From a virus: a stretch of DNA of 64,000 nt. Location of the stretch: IMG/VR virus record IMGVR_UViG_3300033142_001194, positions 4,999 to 68,998 of that record. One strand, written 5' to 3'. The notes under the pieces were generated by a model that was not told where the DNA came from, made no database searches, and saw nothing but the letters and a program-made list of their open reading frames with translations. The position numbers were made by a program, and so were the translations under genes. Positions 1-44,259 of the stretch are shown here, piece by piece. Each line of letters begins with the position of its first letter. The first letter of the stretch is position 1.

Positions 1-100
1 TTGTTAGGTAAAAACAACACGTTTTGAAAAGTTGGTTGTTAGGTTTGATACATTTTAGTAGTTCTACAAAAACAGTTAAAACATGTCCATAATATGTTTT

Positions 101-259
101 AAAAGCCGTAAGAGGACACAGAGTGTCCACAAGTATATTAATAGATTTATACTTAAAAGCTGTAGGAAGACGTAAAGTGTCTATTGATATATAAGTAACC
201 CCTATTAATACAATAAGGGTTACCTATAATCCTACGAGAAGACACGAAGTGTCTATTGG
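101..259. repeat. Three degenerate copies of an AAAGC..GA(A/G)GACAC-NNN-GTGTC hairpin motif
   Basis: ggacac-aga-gtgtcc at 114-128, gaagacgtaaagtgtctattg at 166-186, gaagacac-gaa-gtgtctattg at 238-258; a related copy lies at 63680-63706. Confidence 0.7.
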
Positions 260-267
260 TTTACAAG

Positions 268-2172
268 TTAAGATAAGAAGTATTTTGCTTCTTTAATAGA
301 CTTATCAAGATCAGGAGATAGCTTATCTAAAGTAACATCACTATTAGTTAGACTACTTAATAGTGTTGAAAGTGAATCTTCTTTAGCAAGATCCATAAGA
401 ATACTTCTATACGTTTCACGTAAAATAGGCATATTATTAGGATGACAGTGAAACGAATCATGGATAGTAAGCACATCAAAGTTACATCTACGAATAACTT
501 CTCTTGCAATATACCCATCAATACTTTGTGTAAAGTTAGCTAGTATAGGTACACTATATTTAGATGGTTTAATTTCTTCACACACATAAGTAAATGAATA
601 AGGGAATTCATCACCCTTAATACCTTTATAAGTAACAGCTTCTTTAACAGGAACATATGAGGTATGTCCATCAGGTAATACATGTACATGTTGTGTTGTA
701 TTACTATCCCAACAACTCCTTACAGCATCCATATAAGGTCTAACAGCAGGAGCTAAGTTATCCATTGCTTTATAGAATGCTTCTAACTCCTCTGTATCCT
801 CACCAAACAATCGTATAGGAGAAGCCTTTGATCCATATGAAAATGGCATTGCAGCTTTCTTAATCTGTTTCTTTGTATATACATGTGATGAACTAAGAAT
901 TCTATTAATTTCAACTGTTAAATTGTTATAGAAGTCTTGTCTTTTACCACTATCAACTAAATTACATTGAATAGCTGTTTGCTTACACCCTGTTAATACT
1001 GTAATAATTTGTAAAAATGATGCCGTACTATCCAATGCAACTAAGTGTCCTGATGGTTTACCATTCTGGTAATCCCAAAATGCTCTAACTGCTTTAAGAT
1101 ACATGTATGGATGTTCTGCTTCATAAACTAACTCCTCTAAATTATCAATATTGGTTTCTACAAATAACATTCTATCTGTAAATAATTCTTTATCTAATCC
1201 CATATGGTTTGCAATATCAATACATAACCATGTATACCCTTCTTTAGATATAACTTCTTTATCATACAAAGAGATAACAGACTTTTTATAATCTGTTGAC
1301 TGTATATTTACATGGTATCCAAGGGAATATATTCTACCTCTACTGCAATATTTCCAATTGAAATAGAAAGGTCTACCTACTAAACCATTAACAATAGTTT
1401 GTGTAATAGACTTCTGTTTTAAGAAGTTATCTTTAGCAACTGCTAAATTCTTAACAGATATACTTTTACCCTCTTCCTCAGCTTTACCTTCAAAGTCAGG
1501 CATTGGTTCATCATAAGCAATAGATTCTTCATCAATTGCTAATTTAATAGCACTTTGTTTATTAATAATATCTAAAGATATTTCCTCTTCATGATGTGCA
1601 CCATTAAGAAGTAATGATCCATTACCATTAATATAACCAGATTGGTTATTAGTCTTAACAGTCAATGGTTTAGTTATCATTGGAGGTAAATACATTGTCT
1701 CTTCTATAAACTTATACGTAGTCTTATTAAGATCAACATTAGACTCAACAATACATGTCCATATACCTTGTATATCTTGCATTGGTTTATTGATTGTATA
1801 CATCCCTGTATTAGCACATATACCTACTAATTCAGTAGCTGTATTTAAACCATCTCTGGTATTTTCATAACCTAACCAAGGCAACAATACACCTACAATT
1901 GCTTGTATAGATTGTGATGGTTTACTGCATACTGCTACAAGTACCCTTTCTACGACTTCTAAGGGGTGTACATGGGCAATCCAATCTATTCTCTTACGTT
2001 TACCCTCATAATAGTTATCGTTGCTTAGATAGGCTATTACAAGCTCTTCTAAGGGTAGTATATGTTCTTCTAATTCAAGAAGATCATGCATTACTTTATT
2101 TGATATATTCTTCTTAGAATATTTAGATTCTGATATTTCTTGTTCTAATATATTGGCTTCTTGTTCAAACAT
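268..2172 (-). CDS. T7-like single-subunit RNA polymerase, N4 RNAP II type, with both subunits in one ORF
   Basis: CSRGRIY (DxxGRxY motif), WLCIDIANHMGLDK (resembles the start of N4 gp16), motif A LDSTASFLQ, motif B KKAAMPFSYGS, motif C IHDSF. Confidence 0.9.
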   Translation of the reverse strand: MFEQEANILEQEISESKYSKKNISNKVMHDLLELEEHILPLEELVIAYLSNDNYYEGKRKRIDWIAHVHPLEVVERVLVAVCSKPSQSIQAIVGVLLPWLGYENTRDGLNTATELVGICANTGMYTINKPMQDIQGIWTCIVESNVDLNKTTYKFIEETMYLPPMITKPLTVKTNNQSGYINGNGSLLLNGAHHEEEISLDIINKQSAIKLAIDEESIAYDEPMPDFEGKAEEEGKSISVKNLAVAKDNFLKQKSITQTIVNGLVGRPFYFNWKYCSRGRIYSLGYHVNIQSTDYKKSVISLYDKEVISKEGYTWLCIDIANHMGLDKELFTDRMLFVETNIDNLEELVYEAEHPYMYLKAVRAFWDYQNGKPSGHLVALDSTASFLQIITVLTGCKQTAIQCNLVDSGKRQDFYNNLTVEINRILSSSHVYTKKQIKKAAMPFSYGSKASPIRLFGEDTEELEAFYKAMDNLAPAVRPYMDAVRSCWDSNTTQHVHVLPDGHTSYVPVKEAVTYKGIKGDEFPYSFTYVCEEIKPSKYSVPILANFTQSIDGYIAREVIRRCNFDVLTIHDSFHCHPNNMPILRETYRSILMDLAKEDSLSTLLSSLTNSDVTLDKLSPDLDKSIKEAKYFLS

Positions 2173-2198
2173 GACTATCTCACTTCCGATTAGTTACT

Positions 2199-2234
2199 AA
2201 AAAAATAGAACCATTAGCTTATGCCAATGGTTCT
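2199..2234 (-). terminator. Intrinsic terminator
   Basis: agaaccatt/aatggttct stem followed on the - strand by a T run; directly downstream of ORF 2243-2626. Confidence 0.6.
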
Positions 2235-2242
2235 GATATTAC

Positions 2243-2626
2243 TTACATTCCAAACATATTCTTAAAGTCATCTTTTGACTTTGCTTCAGATGAATATACA
2301 GATAGTTCAACGTCATTAAGACTAGCTCCATTGAAGTCAGTCTTTCCGTTATAAAATCCTATAGTTCTATTATTAGCTGCTGCTAACCGGTAGTGTCCAT
2401 TATCTTGTTGAATAAAGAGACACTTCTCTAAAACTTCTTCAGGAACAGCTACCAAAGTATCTATAAAGTTTTGAGCAATCTTACTTGCTTCATTCTGATC
2501 CTTACACACTGCAGTAAGGTTCAAGATTCCAACATTATTACCTTCAAAGTCTTTCATACCGATTGCAGGACGGATGTCGTATACAACTTTATTAGTTGCT
2601 GTTTTCTTTACGTTTAATGAAGCCAT
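2243..2626 (-). CDS. Early protein, possible N4 gp2/Drc-like ssDNA-binding RNAP II cofactor
   Basis: 127 aa, GGAGA RBS, immediately upstream of the RNAP gene; size and position match gp2/Drc but sequence similarity is not established. Confidence 0.4.
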   Translation of the reverse strand: MASLNVKKTATNKVVYDIRPAIGMKDFEGNNVGILNLTAVCKDQNEASKIAQNFIDTLVAVPEEVLEKCLFIQQDNGHYRLAAANNRTIGFYNGKTDFNGASLNDVELSVYSSEAKSKDDFKNMFGM

Positions 2627-2762
2627 GATATTTCTCCGATAAGGTAAGTTACGAAATGTAACTTATTAATTCGTGTTGTTAAAGGGTTGAAAGAAATAGA
2701 ACACACAAGATAGTAGATAGAACGAAAGTATCCGTTAAGAGATGTAGGTGAAGGTGTAGGTG

Positions 2763-2791
2763 AAAAAAGAGATACCTCGTTAGAGGTATCT
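2763..2791 (-). terminator. Terminator-like hairpin, same family as the pentapeptide-array hairpins
   Basis: agatacctc-gtta-gaggtatct with a T run on the - strand. Confidence 0.6.
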
Positions 2792-2794
2792 TGT

Positions 2795-2908
2795 TTAATA
2801 CATAGCAAGTACTTTACGTATTGCTACAAGCCTGTCTGTTGCAATATACATATGGTCTTTGGTATAGACCATATATGCCTTTAGAAATCTTATATATTTA
2901 ATGGTCAT
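2795..2908 (-). CDS. Small early ORF (37 aa, MTIKYIRFLKAYMVY...)
   Basis: Read manually; GGAGA RBS and the same leader layout as neighbouring early genes. Confidence 0.45.
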   Translation of the reverse strand: MTIKYIRFLKAYMVYTKDHMYIATDRLVAIRKVLAMY

Positions 2909-3076
2909 AACTTTCTCCGAGAAGGTAGTTACCCTACACAAATGTATAGGGTTTGTTTGTTAAAGGAATAATACAAGTTCTAGTAGTATTACTGTAAATG
3001 AAACATATGATGGGATATAAGTAGTCATTGTATTTCTCTAATGTTATTACATACCACGAAATGTAGTATGTTTTGA

Positions 3077-3099
3077 TCTGTTGTTAAAGGGTTTTGACT
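3077..3099 (-). promoter_or_regulatory. Early-gene leader motif AGTCAAAACCCTTTAACAACAGA (copy 1)
   Basis: Identical 23-mer at 3077-3099, 3406-3428 and 3776-3798; partial copies at 2674-2688 and 63506-63521. Confidence 0.75.
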
Positions 3100-3376
3100 A
3101 TGCTCTTCTACTTTCTTTAAGAGCATAGAAGTCTGTAAGAGCTTCTTTGTTATTTTCATAAGACTTAACAGCTAAGATAGTTGAAGCTATACCTAATGTA
3201 GGTATTACTTTATTTGTATCTGAAATAGTTAAGTAAGGTAGAACTACCTTTTGAAGTTTAGAAGGTAGTGTATCAATACCTCCTAAGCTATCTATAAGTG
3301 AGGTAAGTACTAACTGTTGACGATAGTACATGTCATCTATTGAATGGATTGCTTGTTTGATTGTTAAAGGTTTCAT
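3098..3376 (-). CDS. Early hypothetical protein (paralog of 3507-3743)
   Basis: GGAGA RBS; shares MKxLTIK start and ALxDFYALKxxRRA end with the neighbouring ORF. Confidence 0.75.
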   Translation of the reverse strand: MKPLTIKQAIHSIDDMYYRQQLVLTSLIDSLGGIDTLPSKLQKVVLPYLTISDTNKVIPTLGIASTILAVKSYENNKEALTDFYALKESRRA

Positions 3377-3405
3377 ATGGATCTCCGTAAGGATTAGGGT
3401 TAATT

Positions 3406-3428
3406 TCTGTTGTTAAAGGGTTTTGACT
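3406..3428 (-). promoter_or_regulatory. Early-gene leader motif (copy 2)
   Basis: Exact 23-mer repeat about 30 nt upstream of ATG 3376. Confidence 0.75.
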
Positions 3429-3506
3429 TTATGTTGTGTGCTATCTTATTAGGTGGTAGGTGATGTGTAGGTGATGTTGGAACTAACAGCATCCTTGCTG
3501 TTAGGG

Positions 3507-3743
3507 TTATGCACGTCTTGCTGCTTTAAGGGCGTAGAAGTCTTTTAGAGCTTTATTATCTATCATTGAAGCTACTGATGATGTAATAGCCATTAACGTA
3601 GCATCTGCTGTATCCAATGCGTTATCAGCAGTATCAAATGTACCGCTAATAGTTGTTACACTACGTTCTGATGTTGTAGCTATAATGGTAGCTACAGATG
3701 AAAATGTTGTACTGATAGAGTCTTTGATTGTTAAAGTTTTCAT
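3507..3743 (-). CDS. Early hypothetical protein, Ser/Thr/Ala-rich (probable first gene)
   Basis: AGGAGA RBS; paralog of 3098-3376. Confidence 0.75.
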   Translation of the reverse strand: MKTLTIKDSISTTFSSVATIIATTSERSVTTISGTFDTADNALDTADATLMAITSSVASMIDNKALKDFYALKAARRA

Positions 3744-3775
3744 GGTATTTCTCCTAGAGTTTTGAACTGAATTGT

Positions 3776-3798
3776 TCTGTTGTTAAAGGGTTTTGACT
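3776..3798 (-). promoter_or_regulatory. Early-gene leader motif (copy 3)
   Basis: Exact 23-mer repeat about 33 nt upstream of ATG 3743. Confidence 0.75.
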
Positions 3799-3841
3799 TT
3801 GATTGTTTATAGGGGGGGATAGTCCCTATTCTTTATGGTCA

Positions 3842-3975
3842 TTCAGTAAACACTGGATATGTACTATTTTTTTTTTTTTCTTATATAATTTAAAATTATT
3901 TTTTTTTTTTTTTCAGTAATCACTAGATTTGTACTAATTTTTTTTTTTTTTATAAAATAATTTTATAATTTTTTA
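3842..3975. repeat. 70-bp tandem duplication with long poly-T tracts; probable genome end/junction region
   Basis: ttcagtaaacactggatatgtacta-polyT at 3842 and ttcagtaatcactagatttgtactaa-polyT at 3912; lies between divergent early and terminase genes. Confidence 0.65.
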
Positions 3976-4196
3976 ATGGAACATAACTATCTTATATTTC
4001 ACTAATGTCTTTTATTATTCTAATAATCTTAATTACCTTTAAATAAATTACTATAAGCAGCAAAATATTTTTAGATAAAATACCTAACTACTAACTACCT
4101 TTATATAACAAAAAATTTAAAATAGTTGGTTGTTAGGTTTATGGTTTATTATAGGTGGTTATTACAAGAAATTTAGACAGGTTAAAAGGAGAGAGA

Positions 4197-4877
4197 ATGA
4201 AAGAAATAACATTTGATATGTTAGCTTTGGCTTTACCTAAAGGTAAGAGAAATTTACTTACAGAAGAATTGGTAGAAGAGATTAATAGTAATTTAACTAA
4301 CCCGTTACTTGAGGAACACTTAAGAGATAATATTCTTGGTTTTATGAATGTACTTCAGGAGGGTAAGTATAAGTTACAGGAATACTTTAATGCAGTAAGG
4401 TACTGTACATATAGGTTATCTGGTAATGCACAGAACCAAAGTTATGTTAAAACCTTTCCAGATAGGTATCAGAGGTATGTTAGTAAGGATACTCCGCAGA
4501 AGGATATATCAGGGATAATTAGTGTTTATAATAAGAGTAAGTTAGTTACTGCTATTATGGCTCAGAGTATGATTCCTATTCATATTTCTAATCAAGATTT
4601 ACATCAACAAGCTATTCTTAAATTAGCTGATTTAATGATGAATGCTAAGAGTGAGAAAGTTCAAAGTGATAGTGCTGGTAAGTTAGTTGATGTTCTTAAG
4701 GCTCCTGATGTAGCTAAGATAGAATTGGATATTGGTGTTAGTACTGATGGGGCTATTAGTGATTTAATGGCTGCAGTAGGTTCACTGGCTAAGATACAAC
4801 AAGAAAGAATTATTGATGGGACTGTTACTGTTAAAGAAGTAGCATGTAGTCCTATAGAATCAAAACGGTTGGTATAA
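4197..4877 (+). CDS. N4 gp69-like protein, putative terminase small subunit
   Basis: GKYKLQEYFNAVRYC, KTFPDRYQ, YNKSKLV and KSEKVQSDSA segments recalled from gp69 homologs; AAGGAG RBS before ATG 4197. Confidence 0.7.
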   Translation: MKEITFDMLALALPKGKRNLLTEELVEEINSNLTNPLLEEHLRDNILGFMNVLQEGKYKLQEYFNAVRYCTYRLSGNAQNQSYVKTFPDRYQRYVSKDTPQKDISGIISVYNKSKLVTAIMAQSMIPIHISNQDLHQQAILKLADLMMNAKSEKVQSDSAGKLVDVLKAPDVAKIELDIGVSTDGAISDLMAAVGSLAKIQQERIIDGTVTVKEVACSPIESKRLV

Positions 4878-25207: not shown

Positions 25208-28200
25208 ATGTCTACCACTCAAACAAATAAAAAAGTAGATGTTGCTAAAGCATCTACAGATAAAGCAGAAGAACTAAATTACACACAACCTTCAAGAGAT
25301 ATTAGTTTAGGATCAGTTCCTAACTTTAAACCAAGTAAACCAATAACAGATAGAAATACTTTTGATTACTATTCTTCAGCTAATGCAGGTCAAAGATTAA
25401 GAGATGCAGCAAATCTTAAACAGAATACTTTACCTGATAGAAATGTAGGTGAAGTGGTTCAGGATATTGCAGGATCATTAGGTAAGTTTGGTGTACAAGC
25501 AGGACAGTCTTTATACGGTTTAACAGATGCAGTATCACTTGGAAACATTGATAAAGGTTTAGATTCTATTGGTTTAAAACCAGACTTTAACAGAACAACA
25601 GAATTTATTACTGGTTTACAGTCAGATCAAACACAAGCAGCAATAGCTAATAAAGCTAAAGCAGCACAGGATTGGAATAGCCTTGAGAGCCAACGTAAGG
25701 CTGCTGACGAGGCGAAAGGGTTACCTTCCTTTATGGTTGGTGCTAATGAAGAACTTAGAACCGCCGGTAACGTCTTAGAGGGCTTGTGGGACAATCCTTT
25801 AGCCTTACAAGACTCCCTTGTTAGTTCTGCACCACACTTATTAGGTGCAAGAGGAGCAGCAAATGCATTAGCAAAAGGAGTAGCTAAAGCACAAGCAAAG
25901 AAAGGAGCAAGTAAAGCTGCTATTAAGAAAGCTGAAGCTGCTGCAAGAGCTAAAGGAGCTGTCTTATATACTGCAGCTACTGAAGGTGGAAGTGCTCAAG
26001 TAGATGCTAAGAATAATGTATTATCAGCTTCTTTTAAAGAGTTAAGAGAAAACAATGATAGATTTAAATCACTTGAAAAAGAAATGTCTCCAGAAGATGC
26101 AAGAAGAAAACTTGCAGGAGAAACAGGTGCAATAGCTTTATTAGCAACAGGATTATTAGCAGGTGGAGCAAGTAAGCTTACAGGTGCTGGTGATACTATT
26201 GGTAACTATGGTAATAGAGAAGCAGCTAAGACACTAACACAAGCCATTAACAAAGCTGTAATCCAACCTATGAAGAGTGAAGGTATAGAAGAAGCCTTAC
26301 AAGGTATTACAGGAGGATTGGTTCAGAATGTTGCAGAGAAACTAACAACAAATAAAGATAAAGCTTTAGGAGAAGGTATAACAGAACAAGCAGTTGAAGG
26401 AGCAGTATTAGGTGCATTATCAGCAGGAGCAATGCCAGTAGCAGCAGTAACAGTACCAGTAGCTAAAGGAGTAGCTAAAGGAGCAGTAGCAACAGCTAAA
26501 GCAGTTCCTAAAGTTATTAAAGCTGGTTCAAATGTTGTAAAAGATGTTGCTACTAAAGCAGAAGATAGAGCCCTATTAAACCCATCAATAGCAGATATTG
26601 ATATTCCTACTTCTGATGCTAATGAAGCAACTCAATTGGATTATATTAATAAAGTAAAAGATAAGAATATTCCATTGGTTGAAGCACATGTAGATATTTC
26701 AAACCAATTAAAAGAACTAACACCTGAAGAATTAACAAGTGATAAAGGTAAAGGGTTAATAGAAAGAGAACAGGTATATGCAAAACAGATAGCAGATAAC
26801 AATATTGTTGTAGATAAACTTACTAAAGGATTTGAAACAGGGCAAAATGAATTTACAACTGCTGTAAAAGAAGTTACAGGTAAAGAAAAAGGAATACTTA
26901 AGACAGCAAATGATTCAGCTATTAAAGCAGCAAAGGTAATACGTAAAGCAACTAAAGTAGCAAATACTAAAGCTACTGGAATAGCTAAATCATTATCTAA
27001 AGAGAAAGCATTGGCTAAAGCAGCTAATACAGAGAATGTAGAAGATGTTGAAACACCTCATGAAAAGATTGTGGTTATGGCTAATAAACATAATACATTA
27101 CCTAAAGAAGCAACACCTGAACAGGTACAAGAAAGAAGTGACCAGTTTGAAGAATTAATAGGTCAATTGGATTCTGAATTTAATGTAGCTAATACTTCTT
27201 TCGTGGATAACATTAATAAGTTAGAAACCTATAATAAAAAAGAAACACTTACTGCAGAAGAAGATGCAGATGCTAAAGCAATAGCTAAAGGACTTACAAA
27301 AGAAAAAGAAAATGTTGATGCATTAGAAACACAGCTTAATGAAGCATATCAAATAGTACTTAATTCAGAGAATGCTCAAGAACAGGTAGGTATAGGCTTG
27401 AGTAAGGAAAGCTTTAAAGAGTTAATAGATTCTACTTCTAACGCATCGTCAGATACCCTTCAGGTCGGTTTAAAGAAGATATTTGGATCATTACCCCAAG
27501 AAGCAAGTAAAGAAGATTTAGAGAGTATTGAGAAAATAACCAATAACCCTAATATTGATGCAGTATCTAAAACAAAGTTATTAAACTATGTTGAAACACA
27601 GCAAGCAAAATCAGCTTCAGGAGTATCCAAAGAAGTCTTAAAAGGAGGAGGATTTAATACTAAAGGTGTAAAACTAAAAGGATTAAATGAGTACCAAAAG
27701 GATATTGATGATGCTACACGTTTAGGGTCTTCTACAGTAGCAGAAAATGTATTAAGTGATTTACAAAGGTTTAACGATCTTCATGCAAGTAAACTTAAAA
27801 TATTAGATGCAGTTATTAAAGATCCAACAGATAAACAAGCTAAAGCAGTATTATTAAAGAATTACCCAAGTTCTACTAAATGGAAGTCTATTGAAGCAGT
27901 AAGAGGTTTTGTAGCTAAGGAAGTTAATGCTATTGAGAAAGGTCTTAAAGAATCTAGTTATATTGCACAACAGAAGTTCAGTAAAGAAGAAGTACCAAGT
28001 TCTTATAGTATTGAAGAAGTAACTAAACCAATAAAAGCTAAACCAATAAACCAAGAAGTTAAACCAACTGAAATAGTTAAAGAAGTTAAAGCTAAAGAAG
28101 TTAAAGCTAAACCAACTGAAGTAACTGAAGAAGTAAAAGTTAAGACTACTCGGAAAATATTAAGAGAGGTTATGACAGATAATAATATTGACTTTGCTTT

Positions 28201-31200
28201 ATCAGATAAAGCCAATAAAAATATTAAGAAAGCTATTTCAGCAGAAGAAGATTTATGGGTTAAAGAAGTAAAAGATAATCAGAAAGAGTTTGGTGAATCA
28301 GACCAACAAATGTTACAGGAAGAGTTAACTAATAAAGCTAAGTTATTTTATAAGGGTATTCAAGATGGGTTACTTAATACAGTAGATGGATCTATAGAAG
28401 CTACAGAAGAGAATGCTGTATACGCTACTGGATTTGATATTGGGTATAAGCAGTATGTTGAGGTACTTGTAAATAAGCAATTTCTTACTGGTAAGATACA
28501 AGATAATAAAGTATCTGAATGGTTTACACCTAAGAAGATAGTAGACAATAGTTCTTTACTACAAACAACACCTAATTTCTTTAATGGTTTAAATTCTTAT
28601 GTATTAGAAAATAATATAGCTAAAGATGAAGAAAATGTATTAAAGAAAATAGAAAAGTTTGATAGTAAATTTTCTAAAGTATTTAAAGATAAAGCATTCC
28701 AACCGTATAACACTGTACCTGTTTCAGATAAATATACGGATAAATTTAAAGATTCTGAAACATTTATAGAAGGTTATCTTTCAGAAGATTTAATGCAGTA
28801 TTTCATGACTGAGGAAGGTAATTTTGATGATAACTTTTTATCTACACTTTCTACAGAAGCAATGATGTGGTTAGCTACAGGATATGAAAAGTTATTAATA
28901 AATAATGATGATGCTATTAATAGTATTTTAGGTCAAGCACAAGGATCTAAATTACCTGCAAATGCCTTTAGTGTTTTAGGTACTTCAGGTATTCCAAGAA
29001 CACAGTTAATTCATTCAATAGGGCAATCTGCTTTTAAAGCTCTTAATCTTAAATCTAAAGAAGTTGATGCTACTATAGAAGAGAAGATGATAACTGCGAT
29101 AGGAACACATATGTATCATACCCTTAACTTTATGGGTTATTTTAAAGATACTGTTATATCTAAAGAGGATTTTGATAGCCTAAAAGGTGAAAAAGGAAGT
29201 CTTGATTTTGAAGGTACTGTAGCTAACTTTGTAGCTCCTGTATCTATTGGTTCAGTAGAGAATGGTGATTTTGAAGTTGATACTAATATTTCCGATCAAA
29301 TACAAAGTTGGAAGAGAGATCCTGAATCACCTAAAGATCCATTCGTAGTTCAAACACTTACTGATTCTTTTGGTTCAACATCTAAAGAAGTTTACCCATT
29401 ATTAGAAGTACCTAAAACTGTAGCAACTAAAGTTGTTAAATCTATTCAAAATATTCCTACTAACATTAGAGAATATTTAGATAAGAAACAAGAAGAAGAA
29501 AATTATTTTAAGAAGGATCAATATGAAGCTTACCTTACTCTTAATACAGATGAAAAGAGAGTAATTGGCGGGTATAACTTTAATACAGATGGTTTACATG
29601 AATTAAACAAAGCAGCAGTAATAAGTAAAAATAATACTATTGATAGGACTATAAGAGCTATAGAAGAATTTGCTTCTCAAGTAGAAGCTAAAAATGGTGA
29701 TTTATTTAATACACCTTTCTTCTATGAACAAGAAATTTGGAAGAATTTCAGAAATGGTACTTCAGGTAATATGATTAACTCTCAAGCCAATAAACTTGTA
29801 AGACATTTAACAGGTTTAGGTAATGCAGTTAATACTACTATTGATCCAAGAGATTCTGCTTCACAAGCACATAAGGATGCACTACTTAGATTTAAAGCTT
29901 CTGTTCTTACTGGTTTTGGTGGTAAACCTGAAAACAGTTCTGATTCAGATATACATAAGGATTTTGATGATATTGCTAAAGGCTTATCTACAGTTAATCA
30001 AGATATTCTTATGGCTTCAGATAGTATTAGAAATAAAGCTTCAGATGGTATTACACAAGCAATAGAAAGTATTAATGAAGAGTCTGAATATGCTTTCGAT
30101 GCTCTTGTCGCTTATGCTAATTACACACCTGATAAACCATTTAATACATCTCTATTTAACGAGGTAGATGGTATTACCAATGGAGTTACAATAGGACTTA
30201 TACAATTAGCTGCTGCAGAGAATTGGGAGGGTGTAGAAGACCTTATGAAGGCTTCTGGACTATATGAAACAGATATGCCTAATGGTTATGCAGATTTCCT
30301 TACTACAGGTGGTCAAGATAATTACAAGCAAACAGCTAAAGTAATGTTAGCTAATTATGCTGAAATAAAGAACTCTTATAAAGATGATGGAACCAATAGA
30401 TATATTAAATCAAATGCATTGGATTCTTTTATAGGTCAGTTAGAGAAAGATGGAGAAATTTCTTCTATAGCAAGAACACTTGTTAAATTTCCTTTAATGA
30501 TTGCTTCTTATGGTGGATCACTTGATAGGATTATAAAGAACTTCTCAAGCAGTATGTTAGATAACGTGTATTCTCAAATTGAGGATGCAGTTGCTAATGA
30601 AAGCCAAAGTGATTTAGATTCTATAGCAAGTAACCTTAACTTAATTGTAGGAGGAAATTATTCTATTGATTTAGATACTGCTTTATCTTTTGATATTTCA
30701 CAGAAAGATAAAGACGTATTCCTTTCAAGTATGGAAAACACTATTGGTAAAGCTTTAAGGGATACTATTGAAAGTAAGTTTGAAGTATTCTTTGCTAAAA
30801 GAGATGAAGTTAATACAGCACTAAATTTAGTATTCCAAGTAACTGAGAGTAGATATAAAGCAGAAGTAGAAAAACAAGAAACTGAAGCTGGTCATCCAAT
30901 ATCTAATAAAGCTAAAGAAGCTATTTTAATTGGTATGTCAGATATGCTTCCATCCTTTGCAAATTACAATTCAGATGTGGGTGATACTACTACCAATATG
31001 TTACCTATGGATACTACCAGTAGTTCAGCTTTTAAGGATACTCATAGACAACAGGTAAAGAGTAAAGCTTCATTGAATGGTAAACATTCAAGTGTTGCCT
31101 ATGGCAATGAAATGACTTTAGAGAAACCGGGACTTACTACTACTATTGGGGGTATTCATGGTTTAGATAGTGCAATGATGATGAATGTACTTTCAGAGTA

Positions 31201-34200
31201 TGTCGGTTTAAATGTTCATGATGCTGTTGGTTTTAATCTGTTTGACGTGGATTCTGGTACTGTTAAGTTTAATGATGGTTTCTTTAATATTGTCTCTGAC
31301 TATAGTATTAGGGAAGAAGTACTTAAAACACTTACAAGGGTAAAAGGTAATCTTACCCCTAAAGAATTGGATGCTTTAGATAAGACATTACAGTTAGTTG
31401 AATACAGTACTAAGTATGACTACGGAGAAGGTATTGTTAATATCTATGAGGATGAAGAGGGTAAAACTCAGGTAGAGAAAAAGTATAATTCTTTTAACGA
31501 ATACTTTGATGACTTTAAAGTAGTAACTAAAGAAGATACAGATAAAAAGAAAGAGTGGATGGGTAAGATTAAAACAGTTATCCAATACAATATGGGAGGT
31601 ACAAATAAAGGACAATATAAGCCAAACAAGGAAACTATACCTACTTCAGTAGAAGCAGGAGAAGAGTTAGGTAAGTCTATGGTTGAAGCCAATATAAAAG
31701 GGATTAAACCAACCACACCTTTAGCACATAGAGGGTTATACATTCAAGAAGCATACAATGATATGCAAGTCTTAATGGACAAGAAACTTACTCATAAACA
31801 GTTTACTGAGTTAATGAATAAACAGTTAGGGACTGAGTTTAAACAGTCTACTGTTATGGGTATGGCTAAGAATACTAGAAAAACATATACACCTGATACA
31901 GAAGAAAATATAGATTCTGTATTGGTTTATGACAGGGATACTAATATTTTTAATGTTATAGAATCCACATTACAGAATGCACCTGAACAGGTGTTTGGTT
32001 CTTTACCTAATACCTTTAAAGAAGATACATTTAATGAATCCATTTCAGAAATTATTTCTGCAGAAGATACCTATAGAATATTTTCTGATCTTGAAACAAG
32101 TGGTGGATTAAATAGTGTACAAGATTCTAATACCCATAAGGAACAGTTAAAGAATATTATTTCAAGTATTGTGAACAAAGCCGTTAACCCATTAATACCT
32201 TTACAGTATAAATATAGGGAAGAAGGTACAGAAACAAGAGGACTATATACAGATAACACTATATTACTTAATAGAGGATCTTCTACGCTCACTGACGGTA
32301 CACAAGATTCAGCTCAATCAGTTTATGTACATGAGTTATTACACGCTGTTTTAAACGTTTCTCTTGATGATCCTGCTAATAGAAGGGAAAGAAGACAGAT
32401 ACAGAAATTATATGAAGAAGTAAGAAGTAAGATGACTCCTACTGATTTACTTACTGTTCCAGTATCTATAGCTTCTGACTCTCAAATAGCTGCTGCTGAA
32501 TTACGTTATGACCATATGTTTAATAACTTAAATGGTAATGGTTTACATGAGTTTATATCTATTGGATCTACAAATGAGGTTATGGTTAATTTCCTTAAGA
32601 ATATGGATAGAGAATCCAATAAAGAATTACCATTAACTATTTGGGGAAGGTTTTCAGAGATTGTTAGTAAATTTATAAATTCCCTATTTAAAAGAGTATC
32701 TGGTTTAAAAGACTTAACTGCTGATAAAGAGTTATTAAATTTAGCAGAACAATTAGCAGGAGCAAACAGTAGGAAAGCAGAAACATTATTCAGGGGAAAT
32801 ACTAAGTTTGAATCTACTGAAGTGGTATTAACAGAAGCTCTTAAGGATTATGTATTAAGCTCAATTATTGAGTATTCAGATAAGTTAGGTAATACAGCTT
32901 TTAACAACAGACCTATGCAAACACTTAAGAATTTAAGTGATTCAATATTAGCAATAAGTCTTGTTATGTGGCAAGACGAAGTTGTTCCTTGGTTAGAAGC
33001 ATTTGAACAGGCAGCATATAAAGCAGGTATTACAGAGAAAGCAATGGTATCAAGATTGATCCATGAATTAGTAGGTGAAACTGTTGATACAGCTAAGTGG
33101 AATGATCTATTGGCTCAATCCAATAAAGACATTGACCAATTAAGAGCTAAAATTAGTACCGCAACAGGAGCAGTGTTATTAAGTAAATTTAAAACAGATT
33201 TAGATCATACTCAGAAAGTAGCCATAAGTAAGTCTTTAGTTAAGACAGATTTACATTCAATAATGGATAAGTATTCTGTTTCAGAACTACAGGAATTATA
33301 TTCTACTGATAGTGGTTTATTGGCTTCTGAAATTAAAACTAAAACCAAGGAAATATCTGATAAATATAACAGTAAAGTTTCTAACTACTTTAATCTTCAT
33401 TCTGAAGGTTTAGGACGCTTAATGGCTACAGGTGAACCAGGTGTATATAACGCTATGGAGAATGCTTACCGTATTGCTAATATGCACTCACTTAAGGATA
33501 TATATGATTCTAAGCTATCAGAAGAAGAAGTACTTGAAGCAGAAGGGTTAATTGATACGCTTGCTACTTTATACGCTATCAATTATACAGATCAAAAACA
33601 TAAGACTATTTTTGCTTCTCTATTGGATTCGGAAATAGATGGTACTGTATTTACAATGTACCATCATAAACATGTAGTAAGTAAAGCTCTTGAAGAAAAC
33701 TTTGATGGTCAGAAAGCTTTAATGATTAAAGGGTATTCTTCTGAATTAACAAACCCTAATATATCTTTTGTTGTGGGTACTTTAGAAATGGAATCTGAAT
33801 TAGCTAAAGATGGGTATGTTAGAAGTAGTGTACCTTTAGAAAAAGATAAGACTGATCCAAATAAACAACAATTGTTTATGTATACCTCAAGAGATTCTGG
33901 TGCAAATACTTGGATGAAGATGATTGTATCTTTTACAAATAAATCTGCTAAAGGTGCAAACTTAATTAAGGTAAGAGCACAGGGAGATTCTGTTGATTCA
34001 TATAATGAGGGGTTAAAGGATGGTCAAAGGATGTTTGAAGATAATAGGAAAGAGATGCTTAAACAGCTTACAGGAGGGGTCAAAATTGACGCTGACGCAA
34101 CGATAGCTATTCCTACCTACAACAACGAAGGAGATATTGTTAACTACCGTTACAGAGCATCTGAGAGCTTTAAAGATGGTCTATTAGAAAAGGATAACTC

Positions 34201-35473
34201 TTTTGAGAATGTACTTGGTTCAATGTCAGGATCTATAAGTGATAAATCAAATACTGATGTGATAAATGCTAAAGTAGTTTCAACAGCAAAACAGGATTAT
34301 GATGAAAGGGATGAAGGTATTAAAGCTCAATTATTTGGATCTAAATCATTGTTTGTTGAGATAGGTATTAATTCTACTGATCCAGAATATGTTGAATTAT
34401 ATATGATGATGCCACAAGCAATGAGGGATGAAATTAAAAAGGTTTGGGGTACTGATGGAATGTATATCAGAAAGAATATGGTGTTAGATATTTTTGGTTT
34501 TAGAAAACTATCTATTACACAGATAGAAAAAATAAATAAACCTTGGCTTAGGAAGGTAGAGAATATTTGGCAGGAGGTAATGAAGAATGTTAAAGATGCT
34601 ATTGTTATTAAAACAGGTACAGTATTTGTTGATAACGTATTATCAAATACATCACAGTTAGCTATTGAAGGTCTTAACCCAAGTGAAATAGCAAGATACC
34701 AAGTAGAAGGTTATGATTCCCTTATTGAGTATTTGCAACAGGATAATGAGTTAATAAAATTACAGATTAATTCAGATACTGTTGATCCAACAAAGAAGGA
34801 TACTAAAGTTAATAGTAGGATTAAAGAACTTGAAGCCAATCTTATTGCTAACCCAGTTCATGAGTTAATAGAAGACGGTCAGTTCCAAACTATTATGGAG
34901 GATATAGATTTAAGTGAAAAACAGTTTACTTATAGAAGTTCTTTAGAAGCTTTATTAAGTCCTTATGAAGAATCTATAAATCCTGATGTTCTTAATACGG
35001 TTAAGAAAGTAAGTAATCAAGTCTTTATGACACATGAAACTAAGATTTATGAACTGTTAAAAGATATGACCCAGTATTCTGATTTTGTAGCAAGATATGC
35101 ATTACATAAGCATAATATGAAAAAAGGAGAAATGACTAATAGAGAGTCATTAAGATATATACGTGAAACGTTTGTAAATTATGATACTGCTACAGCACCA
35201 CTATTACAGTATGCTAATGACATGGGTTTAATGGCTTTCACTAAATTCTTCTTAAGAACACAGAAGATTATATTAAGAAACTTTATTAGAGCACCATTAA
35301 GGTTAGGAGGACTATTTGCTATTGAGGGTATTACAGATATGGATATTTCTACAATATCTGATACTGGTTTAAGTCCTACAGCTAGAATGTATAATCCTTT
35401 TGGTTTAGCTGCAGATGCTTCAGGATTTCATTTAGTAGAATTTGCAAATAATTTCACACCTGACTATAACTAA
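25208..35473 (+). CDS. Virion-encapsidated RNA polymerase (N4 gp50-like)
   Basis: 3421 aa, no Cys seen on reading; motif A EVDGITNG, motif B RTLVKFPLMIASYG, motif C NVHDA; HELLH zincin motif; C-terminal QYSDFVARY and YANDMGL. Confidence 0.93.
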   Translation: MSTTQTNKKVDVAKASTDKAEELNYTQPSRDISLGSVPNFKPSKPITDRNTFDYYSSANAGQRLRDAANLKQNTLPDRNVGEVVQDIAGSLGKFGVQAGQSLYGLTDAVSLGNIDKGLDSIGLKPDFNRTTEFITGLQSDQTQAAIANKAKAAQDWNSLESQRKAADEAKGLPSFMVGANEELRTAGNVLEGLWDNPLALQDSLVSSAPHLLGARGAANALAKGVAKAQAKKGASKAAIKKAEAAARAKGAVLYTAATEGGSAQVDAKNNVLSASFKELRENNDRFKSLEKEMSPEDARRKLAGETGAIALLATGLLAGGASKLTGAGDTIGNYGNREAAKTLTQAINKAVIQPMKSEGIEEALQGITGGLVQNVAEKLTTNKDKALGEGITEQAVEGAVLGALSAGAMPVAAVTVPVAKGVAKGAVATAKAVPKVIKAGSNVVKDVATKAEDRALLNPSIADIDIPTSDANEATQLDYINKVKDKNIPLVEAHVDISNQLKELTPEELTSDKGKGLIEREQVYAKQIADNNIVVDKLTKGFETGQNEFTTAVKEVTGKEKGILKTANDSAIKAAKVIRKATKVANTKATGIAKSLSKEKALAKAANTENVEDVETPHEKIVVMANKHNTLPKEATPEQVQERSDQFEELIGQLDSEFNVANTSFVDNINKLETYNKKETLTAEEDADAKAIAKGLTKEKENVDALETQLNEAYQIVLNSENAQEQVGIGLSKESFKELIDSTSNASSDTLQVGLKKIFGSLPQEASKEDLESIEKITNNPNIDAVSKTKLLNYVETQQAKSASGVSKEVLKGGGFNTKGVKLKGLNEYQKDIDDATRLGSSTVAENVLSDLQRFNDLHASKLKILDAVIKDPTDKQAKAVLLKNYPSSTKWKSIEAVRGFVAKEVNAIEKGLKESSYIAQQKFSKEEVPSSYSIEEVTKPIKAKPINQEVKPTEIVKEVKAKEVKAKPTEVTEEVKVKTTRKILREVMTDNNIDFALSDKANKNIKKAISAEEDLWVKEVKDNQKEFGESDQQMLQEELTNKAKLFYKGIQDGLLNTVDGSIEATEENAVYATGFDIGYKQYVEVLVNKQFLTGKIQDNKVSEWFTPKKIVDNSSLLQTTPNFFNGLNSYVLENNIAKDEENVLKKIEKFDSKFSKVFKDKAFQPYNTVPVSDKYTDKFKDSETFIEGYLSEDLMQYFMTEEGNFDDNFLSTLSTEAMMWLATGYEKLLINNDDAINSILGQAQGSKLPANAFSVLGTSGIPRTQLIHSIGQSAFKALNLKSKEVDATIEEKMITAIGTHMYHTLNFMGYFKDTVISKEDFDSLKGEKGSLDFEGTVANFVAPVSIGSVENGDFEVDTNISDQIQSWKRDPESPKDPFVVQTLTDSFGSTSKEVYPLLEVPKTVATKVVKSIQNIPTNIREYLDKKQEEENYFKKDQYEAYLTLNTDEKRVIGGYNFNTDGLHELNKAAVISKNNTIDRTIRAIEEFASQVEAKNGDLFNTPFFYEQEIWKNFRNGTSGNMINSQANKLVRHLTGLGNAVNTTIDPRDSASQAHKDALLRFKASVLTGFGGKPENSSDSDIHKDFDDIAKGLSTVNQDILMASDSIRNKASDGITQAIESINEESEYAFDALVAYANYTPDKPFNTSLFNEVDGITNGVTIGLIQLAAAENWEGVEDLMKASGLYETDMPNGYADFLTTGGQDNYKQTAKVMLANYAEIKNSYKDDGTNRYIKSNALDSFIGQLEKDGEISSIARTLVKFPLMIASYGGSLDRIIKNFSSSMLDNVYSQIEDAVANESQSDLDSIASNLNLIVGGNYSIDLDTALSFDISQKDKDVFLSSMENTIGKALRDTIESKFEVFFAKRDEVNTALNLVFQVTESRYKAEVEKQETEAGHPISNKAKEAILIGMSDMLPSFANYNSDVGDTTTNMLPMDTTSSSAFKDTHRQQVKSKASLNGKHSSVAYGNEMTLEKPGLTTTIGGIHGLDSAMMMNVLSEYVGLNVHDAVGFNLFDVDSGTVKFNDGFFNIVSDYSIREEVLKTLTRVKGNLTPKELDALDKTLQLVEYSTKYDYGEGIVNIYEDEEGKTQVEKKYNSFNEYFDDFKVVTKEDTDKKKEWMGKIKTVIQYNMGGTNKGQYKPNKETIPTSVEAGEELGKSMVEANIKGIKPTTPLAHRGLYIQEAYNDMQVLMDKKLTHKQFTELMNKQLGTEFKQSTVMGMAKNTRKTYTPDTEENIDSVLVYDRDTNIFNVIESTLQNAPEQVFGSLPNTFKEDTFNESISEIISAEDTYRIFSDLETSGGLNSVQDSNTHKEQLKNIISSIVNKAVNPLIPLQYKYREEGTETRGLYTDNTILLNRGSSTLTDGTQDSAQSVYVHELLHAVLNVSLDDPANRRERRQIQKLYEEVRSKMTPTDLLTVPVSIASDSQIAAAELRYDHMFNNLNGNGLHEFISIGSTNEVMVNFLKNMDRESNKELPLTIWGRFSEIVSKFINSLFKRVSGLKDLTADKELLNLAEQLAGANSRKAETLFRGNTKFESTEVVLTEALKDYVLSSIIEYSDKLGNTAFNNRPMQTLKNLSDSILAISLVMWQDEVVPWLEAFEQAAYKAGITEKAMVSRLIHELVGETVDTAKWNDLLAQSNKDIDQLRAKISTATGAVLLSKFKTDLDHTQKVAISKSLVKTDLHSIMDKYSVSELQELYSTDSGLLASEIKTKTKEISDKYNSKVSNYFNLHSEGLGRLMATGEPGVYNAMENAYRIANMHSLKDIYDSKLSEEEVLEAEGLIDTLATLYAINYTDQKHKTIFASLLDSEIDGTVFTMYHHKHVVSKALEENFDGQKALMIKGYSSELTNPNISFVVGTLEMESELAKDGYVRSSVPLEKDKTDPNKQQLFMYTSRDSGANTWMKMIVSFTNKSAKGANLIKVRAQGDSVDSYNEGLKDGQRMFEDNRKEMLKQLTGGVKIDADATIAIPTYNNEGDIVNYRYRASESFKDGLLEKDNSFENVLGSMSGSISDKSNTDVINAKVVSTAKQDYDERDEGIKAQLFGSKSLFVEIGINSTDPEYVELYMMMPQAMRDEIKKVWGTDGMYIRKNMVLDIFGFRKLSITQIEKINKPWLRKVENIWQEVMKNVKDAIVIKTGTVFVDNVLSNTSQLAIEGLNPSEIARYQVEGYDSLIEYLQQDNELIKLQINSDTVDPTKKDTKVNSRIKELEANLIANPVHELIEDGQFQTIMEDIDLSEKQFTYRSSLEALLSPYEESINPDVLNTVKKVSNQVFMTHETKIYELLKDMTQYSDFVARYALHKHNMKKGEMTNRESLRYIRETFVNYDTATAPLLQYANDMGLMAFTKFFLRTQKIILRNFIRAPLRLGGLFAIEGITDMDISTISDTGLSPTARMYNPFGLAADASGFHLVEFANNFTPDYN

Positions 35474-42360: not shown

Positions 42361-42592
42361 GTGTATACTCCTCTAATATTTCTAGTATTTCAGGTAACCT
42401 TTCTGGAAACTCTTTACTGATTTCCTCAACCATATTACATAAAGCTACACTTTCATATTTATCATAAAAGTATTTTAAAAGTATTTCCTCCTTCTCCTTT
42501 TCAGTAGCTTTATTAATTAAGTAATCTTTAGCAATATTATAATTAAAATATGCATGTTTTGGAGTATGTACTAAATCATTGTAAATCATCAC
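42353..42592 (-). CDS. Hypothetical protein
   Basis: Overlapping start/stop with neighbours. Confidence 0.5.
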   Translation of the reverse strand: MMIYNDLVHTPKHAYFNYNIAKDYLINKATEKEKEEILLKYFYDKYESVALCNMVEEISKEFPERLPEILEILEEYTLG

Positions 42593-44259
42593 ATCACCAC
42601 GTTATCTTTAATTAACTGCCTGTACTGGATATACCCTTTAAAGTTTCCAGACCATAATCTATCCCCTCTATCACAATGTGTAATTCCTAATTCCCAATTA
42701 TGAGAAGAATTATCCTGATGTACATGTTCCATAACCTTTGCACAGTGTTCAAAAGCTGATGCATGTACGGGAACACTTGTTACAAGCTTATTGTATAAAT
42801 CTAAAGCTTTCTCTAAGCTATCATTTAAGTTTCTATAACTAACTTGAGCACAGCAACTAGCAGATATTTTAAGAGCATCTTCTTCAGAAAAGAATGGTCC
42901 AGTTCCTACATGACCGTATAGTAATGCACCTACTTCATCTCTAAAGTGTTCTACATATGGTGTATGCCAATCCCCTACTTGTAATTCTTCAGGTGTTGAG
43001 TCAGACATTGCTTTCTTCATTGCTCTAGCTAATTCAGCTATTTCAGGTTGTGCATGTTCATGATCTCGTAAGTAGAAGAAGTTATTAAACTCAGTTGAAG
43101 TTACAATAACTTTTATATGTGAGAATGGTTCTACAATTCTATTAACTAATTGTTTATGTAACCCCTGCATATCTAAATCAGAAGCAGAATGCAGTGCTCT
43201 TAATCCTGCATAGTTCCAAATGTATTTAACATTATCTAATGCTTCACCTGTTAATTCTTCACCAGCTTGCATACCAGGTTTGTTACTACCCCATTCTGAG
43301 GGTGTTACAGGGTTGTCACTGACCAATTGAAGCATCTTCTTAATAGGTATGGCTCTACTGCTTGCAGCATTGCGTGAGAAGCAATTATGCACAACAATAT
43401 CGTTAGCTACAAAATTATGAAAGTCAGAAGAAACAGAAAGGTCATAAACCATTTGGGTACTGTGGAATTCTTTAGCTGTAACACGTACAGGTTTTCCTAA
43501 AAGAGTTTGACTTACCTGCCATCCCTGTTTTTTATGATAATGATTTTTATGGCACGAAGAGCAAGCAGCTACTACATTTTTAATATTGAATGCCTCTTCT
43601 GGGTGGGTGTGTACAGGTAGTATATGGTGCAATTCTAATGGCAAATCTGTTAAGCCGCATACCTTACAATAGTTATCCTGTGCTGCTACTACCTCACCTA
43701 TATGCTGCCTATTCCATGTGGAAGTCCATTTACCATTTATTATTTTATGAGCTAAAGGGTCAGATAATGTTTGTACTCCAAACCCCGCTGTAATTATAAA
43801 ATCCGAAGTTGTGATATCTTTTAACTCTTTCCAACCCATACTCGTAAGTATCAAGTGGTCATCTGTAGCTGTAATAGAGTAATCACCTGCTCTTAAGGTG
43901 AATGTTTTCTTTTCCCCTACTTCCCAAATATCTGTTACCGTTGTATGGGTTACCTCGTTGGAGTCTTCATTAAGCATACGTAATCGCATCTTGTTTAACC
44001 TATGCTGCATCGTCCTACCTAAAGAATCCCCATGTTTCCATTTAGTATAGAACTCTTTAATACTCATAGAGTACTTTCTAAAGTTTCCCCTACCTACCTG
44101 TACACTAGGTAAATCAAAGCAAAGCATAGAATTTCCTGCTAAGCAGCGATGTGTCATAAACTCAGAATGTATCATCCGAGGATACTCAAGTTCTAAAGTT
44201 GTTATCCGATCTCCTTGAATGCTAATACTGTCAGCTATAATCTTTGCTGTTATTGTCAT
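42589..44259 (-). CDS. thyX: Flavin-dependent thymidylate synthase ThyX interrupted by an intein
   Basis: Spliced product restores HSEFMTHR-CFSRNAASSRAIP; also HKQLVNRIVEPF, AQPEI, SASCCAQVSY, HASAFEH. Confidence 0.88.
   Translation of the reverse strand: MTITAKIIADSISIQGDRITTLELEYPRMIHSEFMTHRCLAGNSMLCFDLPSVQVGRGNFRKYSMSIKEFYTKWKHGDSLGRTMQHRLNKMRLRMLNEDSNEVTHTTVTDIWEVGEKKTFTLRAGDYSITATDDHLILTSMGWKELKDITTSDFIITAGFGVQTLSDPLAHKIINGKWTSTWNRQHIGEVVAAQDNYCKVCGLTDLPLELHHILPVHTHPEEAFNIKNVVAACSSCHKNHYHKKQGWQVSQTLLGKPVRVTAKEFHSTQMVYDLSVSSDFHNFVANDIVVHNCFSRNAASSRAIPIKKMLQLVSDNPVTPSEWGSNKPGMQAGEELTGEALDNVKYIWNYAGLRALHSASDLDMQGLHKQLVNRIVEPFSHIKVIVTSTEFNNFFYLRDHEHAQPEIAELARAMKKAMSDSTPEELQVGDWHTPYVEHFRDEVGALLYGHVGTGPFFSEEDALKISASCCAQVSYRNLNDSLEKALDLYNKLVTSVPVHASAFEHCAKVMEHVHQDNSSHNWELGITHCDRGDRLWSGNFKGYIQYRQLIKDNVVM
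43384..44145 (-). mobile_element. Intein (254 aa) carrying an HNH endonuclease domain
   Basis: Starts CLAGNS, block B TATDDHLILT, block F VYDLSV, ends NFVANDIVVHN/C; internal CKVC..ELHHILP..NVVAACSSCH. Confidence 0.9.

Follow-up and report, generated by a model that had tools for sequence, protein, structure and literature searches.

Coliphage N4 RNA polymerase II (RNAP II) is a small T7-like enzyme that is made early in infection and transcribes the middle (replication) genes; the promoters of such enzymes are short and AT-rich and are used on single-stranded templates. It exists as a heterodimer of gp15 (RNAP1, 269 aa) and gp16 (RNAP2, 404 aa; PDB 6DT7). Here, we describe a gene of an uncultured N4-like phage in which the counterparts of both subunits form one polypeptide of 634 aa. 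It lies on the minus strand at positions 268..2172 of a 64,000-nucleotide stretch of DNA (the window, meaning the whole stretch that was analysed), which corresponds to bases 4999–68998 of IMG/VR virus record IMGVR_UViG_3300033142_001194. The record is 68,998 bp long, has direct terminal repeats and is rated complete. Homology and structural modelling identify the predicted gene product as an intact single-chain N4-type RNA polymerase II, with both N4 halves in one polypeptide.

The polymerase gene and its join

The gene is a single, ATG-started open reading frame (ORF) with its stop codon at 268–270, as read from the ORF listing and translation. It contains every peptide singled out in a preliminary description of this DNA, namely PPMITKP, SRGRIYSLGYHVNIQ, KKSVISLYDKEVISKEG, YTWLCIDIANHMGLDK, SFLQ and KKQIKKAAM. 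When the protein was compared with PDB chains using phmmer, residues 157–308 matched positions 118–268 (of 269) of N4 RNAP1 (6dt7_A, E 1e-12), and residues 315–568 and 560–634 matched positions 9–264 and 330–404 (of 404) of N4 RNAP2 (6dt7_B, E 1.2e-47). T7 RNA polymerase (RNAP) was a weaker match (E 5e-9), so that the protein is closer to N4 RNAP II. In addition, Pfam family PF00940 scored 61 bits, the cut-off being 22, placing the protein in the T7-like single-subunit RNA polymerase family, and PHROG RNA polymerase families matched with E-values of 1.6e-93 and 7e-68. On sequence, these family matches are far beyond chance.

The RNAP1 (gp15)-like half spans residues 1–308 (1249..2172, minus strand) and comprises the N-terminal domain, the thumb and the DX2GR block. 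It is matched by phrog_2166 as well as by 6dt7_A, and the RNAP1-only relatives P0069 and P0097 (307 aa) align to residues 5–309. The RNAP2 (gp16)-like half, residues 315–634 (271..1230, minus strand), comprises the palm and fingers and is of a short type without N4 gp16 residues 261–334, which lie just before motif C. Between them is the join, residues 305–320 (KEVISKEGYTWLCIDI; 1213..1260, minus strand), in which neither a stop nor a Met occurs and no linker has been added; the DNA at 1200–1290 reads ...KKSVISLYDKEVISKEGYTWLCIDIANHM... and is open throughout. The join is equal in length to that of T7 RNAP (GKPIGKEGYYWLKIHG) and of the basal fused forms described below, the aligned residues being KEVISKEGYTWLCID in the window and GKPIGKEGYYWLKIH in T7. 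As the gp15 and gp16 matches lie in one uninterrupted ORF, the counterparts of the two N4 subunits are joined in one chain, and the heterodimeric arrangement is replaced by one ORF with neither stop nor start at the join. The preliminary description had proposed exactly this, a single fused ORF that would align to both gp15 and gp16, and the phmmer and PHROG matches to the two halves bear it out. Three orthologues of 634 aa, which are 51–61% identical and come from independent contigs, have a reading frame through the join that is likewise uninterrupted.

At 634 aa, the protein compares with 883 aa for T7 RNAP and 673 aa for N4 gp15 and gp16 summed. It was correctly described as much shorter than the T7 enzyme: by alignment, it is about 250 residues shorter and T7 segments 146–204, 358–402, 585–621 and 642–666 are absent. 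The further description of it as a minimal member of the family does not stand, because fused relatives of 548–582 aa exist. T7 RNAP and the other Autographiviridae RNAPs are also single-chain, share the overall fold and have a join-region sequence nearly equal to that of the window protein. Identity to T7 RNAP is only about 15%, however, and the window protein groups with N4 RNAP II in all trees. Relative to the N4 enzyme, both halves are homologous and collinear, the catalytic motifs are the same, and the window protein has 16 extra N-terminal residues.

Predicted structure

The 634-aa protein was modelled with AlphaFold from an alignment of 40 fused homologues. The model has a mean predicted local distance difference test score (pLDDT) of 93.2 and a predicted template-modelling score of 0.91, with the blocks covering residues 301–320 at a pLDDT of 98. 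In Foldseek searches, the whole chain matched T7 RNAP (3e2e_A) at a query-normalised template-modelling score of 0.75, and the C-terminal half superposed on N4 RNAP2 (6dt7_B) at a root-mean-square deviation of 2.2 Å. The model has the right-hand fold of palm, fingers and thumb, with a Foldseek probability of 1.00 to T7 and mitochondrial RNAPs. Modelling therefore shows one polypeptide that is predicted to fold like T7 RNAP. The join sits in the helical region at the base of the palm, the presumed site of the N4 heterodimer interface.

Conserved motifs and the nucleotide pocket

Alignment shows that the catalytic residues are kept (window/T7: D381/D537, K438/K631, Y446/Y639, H571-D572/H811-D812, R278/R423 and R280/R425). 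The DX2GR block is C276-S-R278-G-R280 (1333..1347; this and the following motifs are on the minus strand), where C276 (1345–1347) replaces the Asp that is found in T7 (D421) and in at least 88% of relatives. Motif A is D381-STASFLQ388 (1009..1032); its Asp is present in 153 of 153 aligned rows, and position 386, which aligns with T7 G542, is Gly in 135 rows and Phe in 11. Motif B runs from K434 through K438 to Y446-G-S448 (829..873). Here, K438 is found in 153/153 rows and the Tyr in 150/153, and K434, at the position of T7 R627, replaces an Arg that is present in 136 rows, Lys occurring in four. Motif C, H571-D572, is at 457..462. Thus both oddities noted in the preliminary description, SFLQ in place of SGxQ in motif A and the loss of the usual Arg from motif B, are correctly observed. 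Separately, the fused clade of 548–582-aa enzymes (P0005–P0015, L008–L031) has Asn for Gly after the motif B Tyr (YNS rather than YGS), and Asn occupies this column in 37 of the 153 rows.

The 11 rows with Phe at the T7 G542 position comprise four proteins of the window clade, two fused forms that retain a linker and five split enzymes, and the residue is an independent marker of this group. Judged from the alignment, SFLQ is therefore a clade marker that is unlinked to fusion, since five split relatives carry it too. Phe386 is paired with Gln549 (526..528), which lies at the position of T7 H784, a column that is His in 128/153 and Gln in 24/153 rows: all 11 Phe rows have the Gln, compared with 13 of the remaining 142. 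N4 has Gly and His at these two positions. In a T7 RNAP selection study, the four residues that were randomised next to the incoming nucleotide include G542 and H784, and the substitutions G542V and H784S are both present in a variant able to accept 2'-fluoro pyrimidines (PMC4551944). By analogy, the Phe386/Gln549 proteins, split and fused, might form a natural sub-family of N4-type RNAP II with a rebuilt nucleotide pocket, in which the ribose-2' selectivity of the 634-aa enzyme would be relaxed or shifted; this is a speculative proposal with the odds well against it.

Genome setting

A virion RNA polymerase of 3421 aa is encoded at 25208..35473 on the plus strand (phrog_2206, E 0), which makes the genome N4-like; the N4 and window genomes are of the same type, both having a virion RNAP. 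The record likewise encodes a portal of N4 type, a major head protein, a terminase, a primase and a DNA polymerase. The minus-strand arm runs from about 3743 through three or four small ORFs, the polymerase gene and the record's first 5 kb, and wraps to 64000–36632, and the late genes occupy 4155–35473 on the plus strand. This minus-strand block begins at the divergent region 3743–4155, and the polymerase gene is found about 1.6 kb along it. As annotated, the genes are arranged as in N4, the polymerase gene being one of the first in the early/middle arm. A giant virion RNAP, genomes of 59–80 kb and three RNA polymerase genes are given as shared traits of the Schitoviridae by Wittmann et al. 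2020 (PMC7650795). The window genome has the giant virion RNAP and a size within this range, with two RNA polymerase genes (virion RNAP and fused RNAP II) instead of three.

A search of the genome for sequence homologues of N4 gp1, N4 gp2 and the Drc-type cofactor detected none. The single-stranded DNA (ssDNA)-binding cofactors of N4-type RNAP II, N4 gp2 and LUZ7 Drc, are mutually unrelated (PMC7145618). The one-piece enzyme would be expected to transcribe the minus-strand middle genes and would need an ssDNA-binding cofactor that is as yet unrecognised. Directly upstream of the polymerase gene there is indeed a 127-aa ORF (2243..2626, minus strand), the neighbour with which the preliminary description had suggested assaying the enzyme. 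It belongs to no family in Pfam or PHROG searches, has no similarity to N4 gp2 or the Kc283 Drc-type protein, has no homologue in 76 loci and finds itself as its sole match among 5.8 billion proteins. An AlphaFold model from the single sequence was unusable (pLDDT 43). A role for this ORFan as the polymerase cofactor is only a guess from its position.

Between the two genes lies a terminator-like hairpin with a 12-bp stem followed by a T run (2207..2234, minus strand). It is followed by a GGAAGTGAG stretch, 6 nt before the polymerase ATG. A second strong hairpin with a T run is found at 2770–2791 on the same strand, and the two flank small early ORFs. Overall, six terminator-like sites were observed in window positions 1–4300, compared with 1.4 expected from shuffles. 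These hairpins could be terminators for the virion RNAP or the host polymerase that partition the early region into units.

Elsewhere in the genome, a 556-aa ORF at 42589–44259 (minus strand) matches thymidylate synthase at residues 291–555 and HNH endonuclease families at about residues 176–266, and could represent an endonuclease that is fused to, or has been inserted into, a thymidylate synthase gene. Beyond the window, at bases 175–1116 of the record (G000; locus L080 175–1116, minus strand), there is a 313-aa ORF with the peptide TNPPF, which we take to resemble motif IV of N6-adenine DNA methyltransferases.

Single-chain relatives

A word-indexed search of 5.8 billion proteins returned three proteins of 634 aa (51–61% identity), 11 of 578–582 aa (33–35%) and one of 613 aa, all of which cover both halves. 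An exhaustive HMMER search of 1.84 billion representatives gave 2986 matches. The best 150 of these include 52 that cover both halves, a share that is inflated as proteins matched on both halves score higher, together with 93 RNAP2-only proteins, two RNAP1-only proteins and three with another N-terminal extension. In IMG/VR, a query with the single 634-aa protein found no close relatives. A scan that started from an alignment of fused forms, and is thus biased towards them, found 69 loci, several of them duplicates: 31 are fused, 36 split, one unclear and one T7-like. The single-chain form is neither special nor rare, being numerous and diverse in metagenomes (52 of the best 150 matches; 31 of the 69 loci).

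The uncultured single-chain forms share the one-piece architecture. P0002–P0004, the three 634-aa proteins, are the sole close single-chain relatives. The 548–582-aa group and the 626–629-aa group (L032, L034 and L038) are separate clades at 30–35% identity, with Gly at the SGxQ position. The 548–582-aa enzymes make up a large clade, some of it of Tara source, and are the shortest single-chain T7-like RNAPs in this analysis. A virion RNAP was present in five of five complete fused-form records tested, which were drawn from two other clades. In four fused-form records, G001–G003 (L013, L020 and L046) and G004 (L032), the virion-RNAP frames are 3988–4823 aa long, compared with 3421 aa in the window genome; the L032 record is a provirus according to IMG/VR.

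Deposited phages were searched with the 634-aa protein, with its join region and with five further fused forms. Among the matches listed, all 186 rows have two genes or T7-type enzymes, and every top-listed phage has the two-gene form. The best deposited-phage match among those listed is to Alteromonas phage vB_AemP_PT15-A5, which has an RNAP1 of 315 aa and an RNAP2 of 338 aa. The latter is of the short type, as in the window, and the match covers 99% of the query at 32% identity. Unlike in the window, the two genes are separate, with four small ORFs between them. Full-text searches of the papers that were accessible turned up no account of a one-piece RNAP II in N4-like phages. The words fused and fusion are absent from the available portion of a 2023 survey of uncultured N4-like viruses (PMC10654107). 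One-piece RNAP II is thus real, recurrent and common in metagenomes, yet undescribed in the searched literature.

Other arrangements were also encountered. Locus L043 (4302–7166) has a 538-aa ORF with RNAP1 and the N-terminal part of RNAP2, a gap of about 950 nt and a 97-aa ORF with the RNAP2 end, and so has a second break, at a site other than the usual split. The RNAP2 part is spread over two ORFs in L061, L069 and L071, an arrangement reported for Achromobacter phages JWAlpha and JWDelta (PMC4193335). Two RNAP2-type proteins, P0117 (518 aa) and P0174 (501 aa), have an unrelated Cys/His-containing extension of about 110–120 aa before the split-type N-terminus.

Trees and the state of the join

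A broad FastTree phylogeny of the RNAP2-homologous half (157 rows) was rooted on T7, Syn5, P-SSP2 and one IMG/VR T7-like enzyme. Fused forms make up a basal grade, followed by a crown of interleaved split and fused forms, and the starred branches force at least 13 changes between the two states. A concatenated tree (77 rows, fused-rich, join columns removed, IQ-TREE with posterior mean site frequencies) agrees: the window clade lies beside two fused forms, then come seven split enzymes, including that of phage PT15-A5, in the sister group. On the rooted trees, the window protein is inside the N4 RNAP II clade. Horizontal acquisition of a T7-type enzyme was considered and rejected.

The surroundings of the window protein were analysed with a careful IQ-TREE search of 48 rows, join residues excluded. 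Here, the four 634-aa proteins and a 331-aa split RNAP2, P0065, form a five-row clade, with 99 in ultrafast bootstrap (UFBoot) and 97 in the Shimodaira–Hasegawa-like approximate likelihood-ratio test (SH-aLRT). P0065 is the nearest relative outside the 634-aa clade. The five rows are nested in a clade of 12 comprising six split forms, two fused forms with a linker scar and four without one (UFBoot 96, SH-aLRT 94). Approximately unbiased (AU) tests used LG+F+G4 and 56 of the 77 rows, 21 having been dropped beforehand as long-branch or redundant. They rejected a tree in which all split-type forms make up one clade (delta log-likelihood 452, p 1e-4), and also the placement of the scarred fused protein P0064 away from the window clade (delta log-likelihood 68, p 0.0025). 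A single origin of the split, as defined by junction type (T7-like or split-type), is rejected by the first of these.

The join itself comes in several states. No extra residues are present in the T7-like enzymes, the basal fused forms, the 548–582-aa group and the window clade. All split enzymes have in common an RNAP2 N-terminus of the form MQxF[TS]GxEYLxID. Six proteins (P0064, P0066, P0068, P0081, P0082 and P0122) are fused and still have the split-type N-terminus and a linker, and these demonstrate that re-fusion happens. How small a step this can be is seen from Delftia phage RG-2014 (L005 820–2961) and Erwinia phage MIF8 (L006 709–2829), in which RNAP1 and RNAP2 are in-frame and 24 and 12 nt apart, such that fusion would take the loss of one stop codon. 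In L042, the nearest IMG/VR relative, RNAP1 ends one base before the start of RNAP2.

Origin of the one-piece enzyme

The preliminary description had called the unsplit enzyme possibly ancestral, and the answer differs between the family and the lineage. For the family, we infer from the sequences that single-chain is the ancestral state, because both the basal branches and the T7-like outgroups are single-chain. For the window lineage, the claim fares badly. Since the window protein is nested in a well-supported clade of split enzymes (UFBoot 96–99), a secondary, scarless re-fusion of two genes is the likelier history, to which we give a probability of roughly 0.6. Further support comes from parsimony on the densely sampled tree, where the window lineage is reached by way of a split state (21 steps versus 22–23). 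Most likely, the lineage regained its one-piece form when a small deletion took out the stop, the spacer and the initial RNAP2 codons, an event that would leave no linker scar. By hand arithmetic, a deletion of about 16 nt in an L042-like arrangement would give the observed join length.

Several observations weigh against secondary re-fusion to an intact enzyme. That P0065 and rows like it are split is known from protein records only, and the AU tests rest on fast searches and a site-homogeneous model. The join has the length seen in T7 and the basal forms and is T7-like (SKEGYTWL in the window, GKEGYYWL in T7), without Met or linker scar, which is the pattern expected of a gene that was never split. 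In addition, parsimony with equal costs on the 77-row, fused-rich tree keeps the path to the window fused throughout (7 steps versus 8–10). The last two points, together with the fused outgroups and basal branches, favour a history in which the 634-aa lineage is the direct heir of a T7-like single-chain gene. The neighbouring split forms would then have come about via several fissions at the same site, or via recombination or homing-type co-conversion that spread the split junction; some phages do have homing endonuclease, intron and AP2-domain annotations at this locus or next to it (rows H52, H57 and H100). What makes this history unlikely, if still a serious contender, is that at least three to five separate fissions would be needed within the 12-row clade alone, each yielding the family-wide N-terminus MQxF[TS]GxEYL. 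Moreover, the T7 likeness of the join is weak evidence, as the Trp of the T7-like join is also present in about 13 split forms, for example in P0106 (MQQFNSYTWLAID). A reading of the clean join as evidence of a never-split history is not borne out by the trees. Origins other than re-fusion or continuous descent are improbable.

Two further points against bear on the gene rather than its history. The record is a metagenome assembly, and the public contigs from two runs that fall on the gene are three short ones (434–582, 849–999 and 1334–1665), none of which spans the join at 1228–1251; nor do reads from these runs cover it. An assembly or sequencing error that erased a stop or frameshift between two genes is nevertheless highly improbable, as the three 634-aa orthologues, on contigs of other sources, have the same uninterrupted join, more distant fused forms exist by the dozen, and the join, which has no extra residues relative to T7, is confidently modelled. 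The other point is that four of 46 highly conserved columns deviate from the family (D276C, A382S, R434K and H549Q), compared with a median of two, so that full activity of the enzyme is not certain. Here, D276C and R434K are private to the window sequence, the nearest relatives P0002–P0004 keeping Asp and Arg, and changes at such near-invariant positions might weaken or alter catalysis in a decaying or functionally changed enzyme. This is also quite improbable: the ORF is intact and its model confident, all motif A and C residues are kept along with the K631 and Y639 equivalents of motif B, as many or more deviations occur in 15 of 73 ingroup rows, and the complete genome holds one sole match to the protein.

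Significance

In the N4 literature, a virion RNAP is taken always to be accompanied by a two-subunit RNAP II. Lenneman and Rothman-Denes 2015 (PMC4496689) state that RNAP II is split in all species with a virion RNAP homologue, that it is a heterodimer in all but two, in which the gp16-like part is in two further genes, and that the heterodimer's origin and advantage are unclear. Natural one-piece enzymes in phages that bear a virion RNAP show that the split is dispensable. With 634 aa in the window and relatives down to 548–582 aa, they are among the shortest single-chain T7-like RNAPs in this analysis. The Phe386/Gln549 pocket variants may interest enzyme engineers; if the reading of the pocket were true, the 634-aa enzyme would be a naturally compact polymerase whose ribose-2' selectivity is relaxed or shifted. 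The window enzyme is probably a secondary fusion and not a relic. According to the trees, the enzyme has switched between split and fused many times at a single site, and these switches supply matched natural pairs, at about 50% identity, with which the purpose of the split may be probed.

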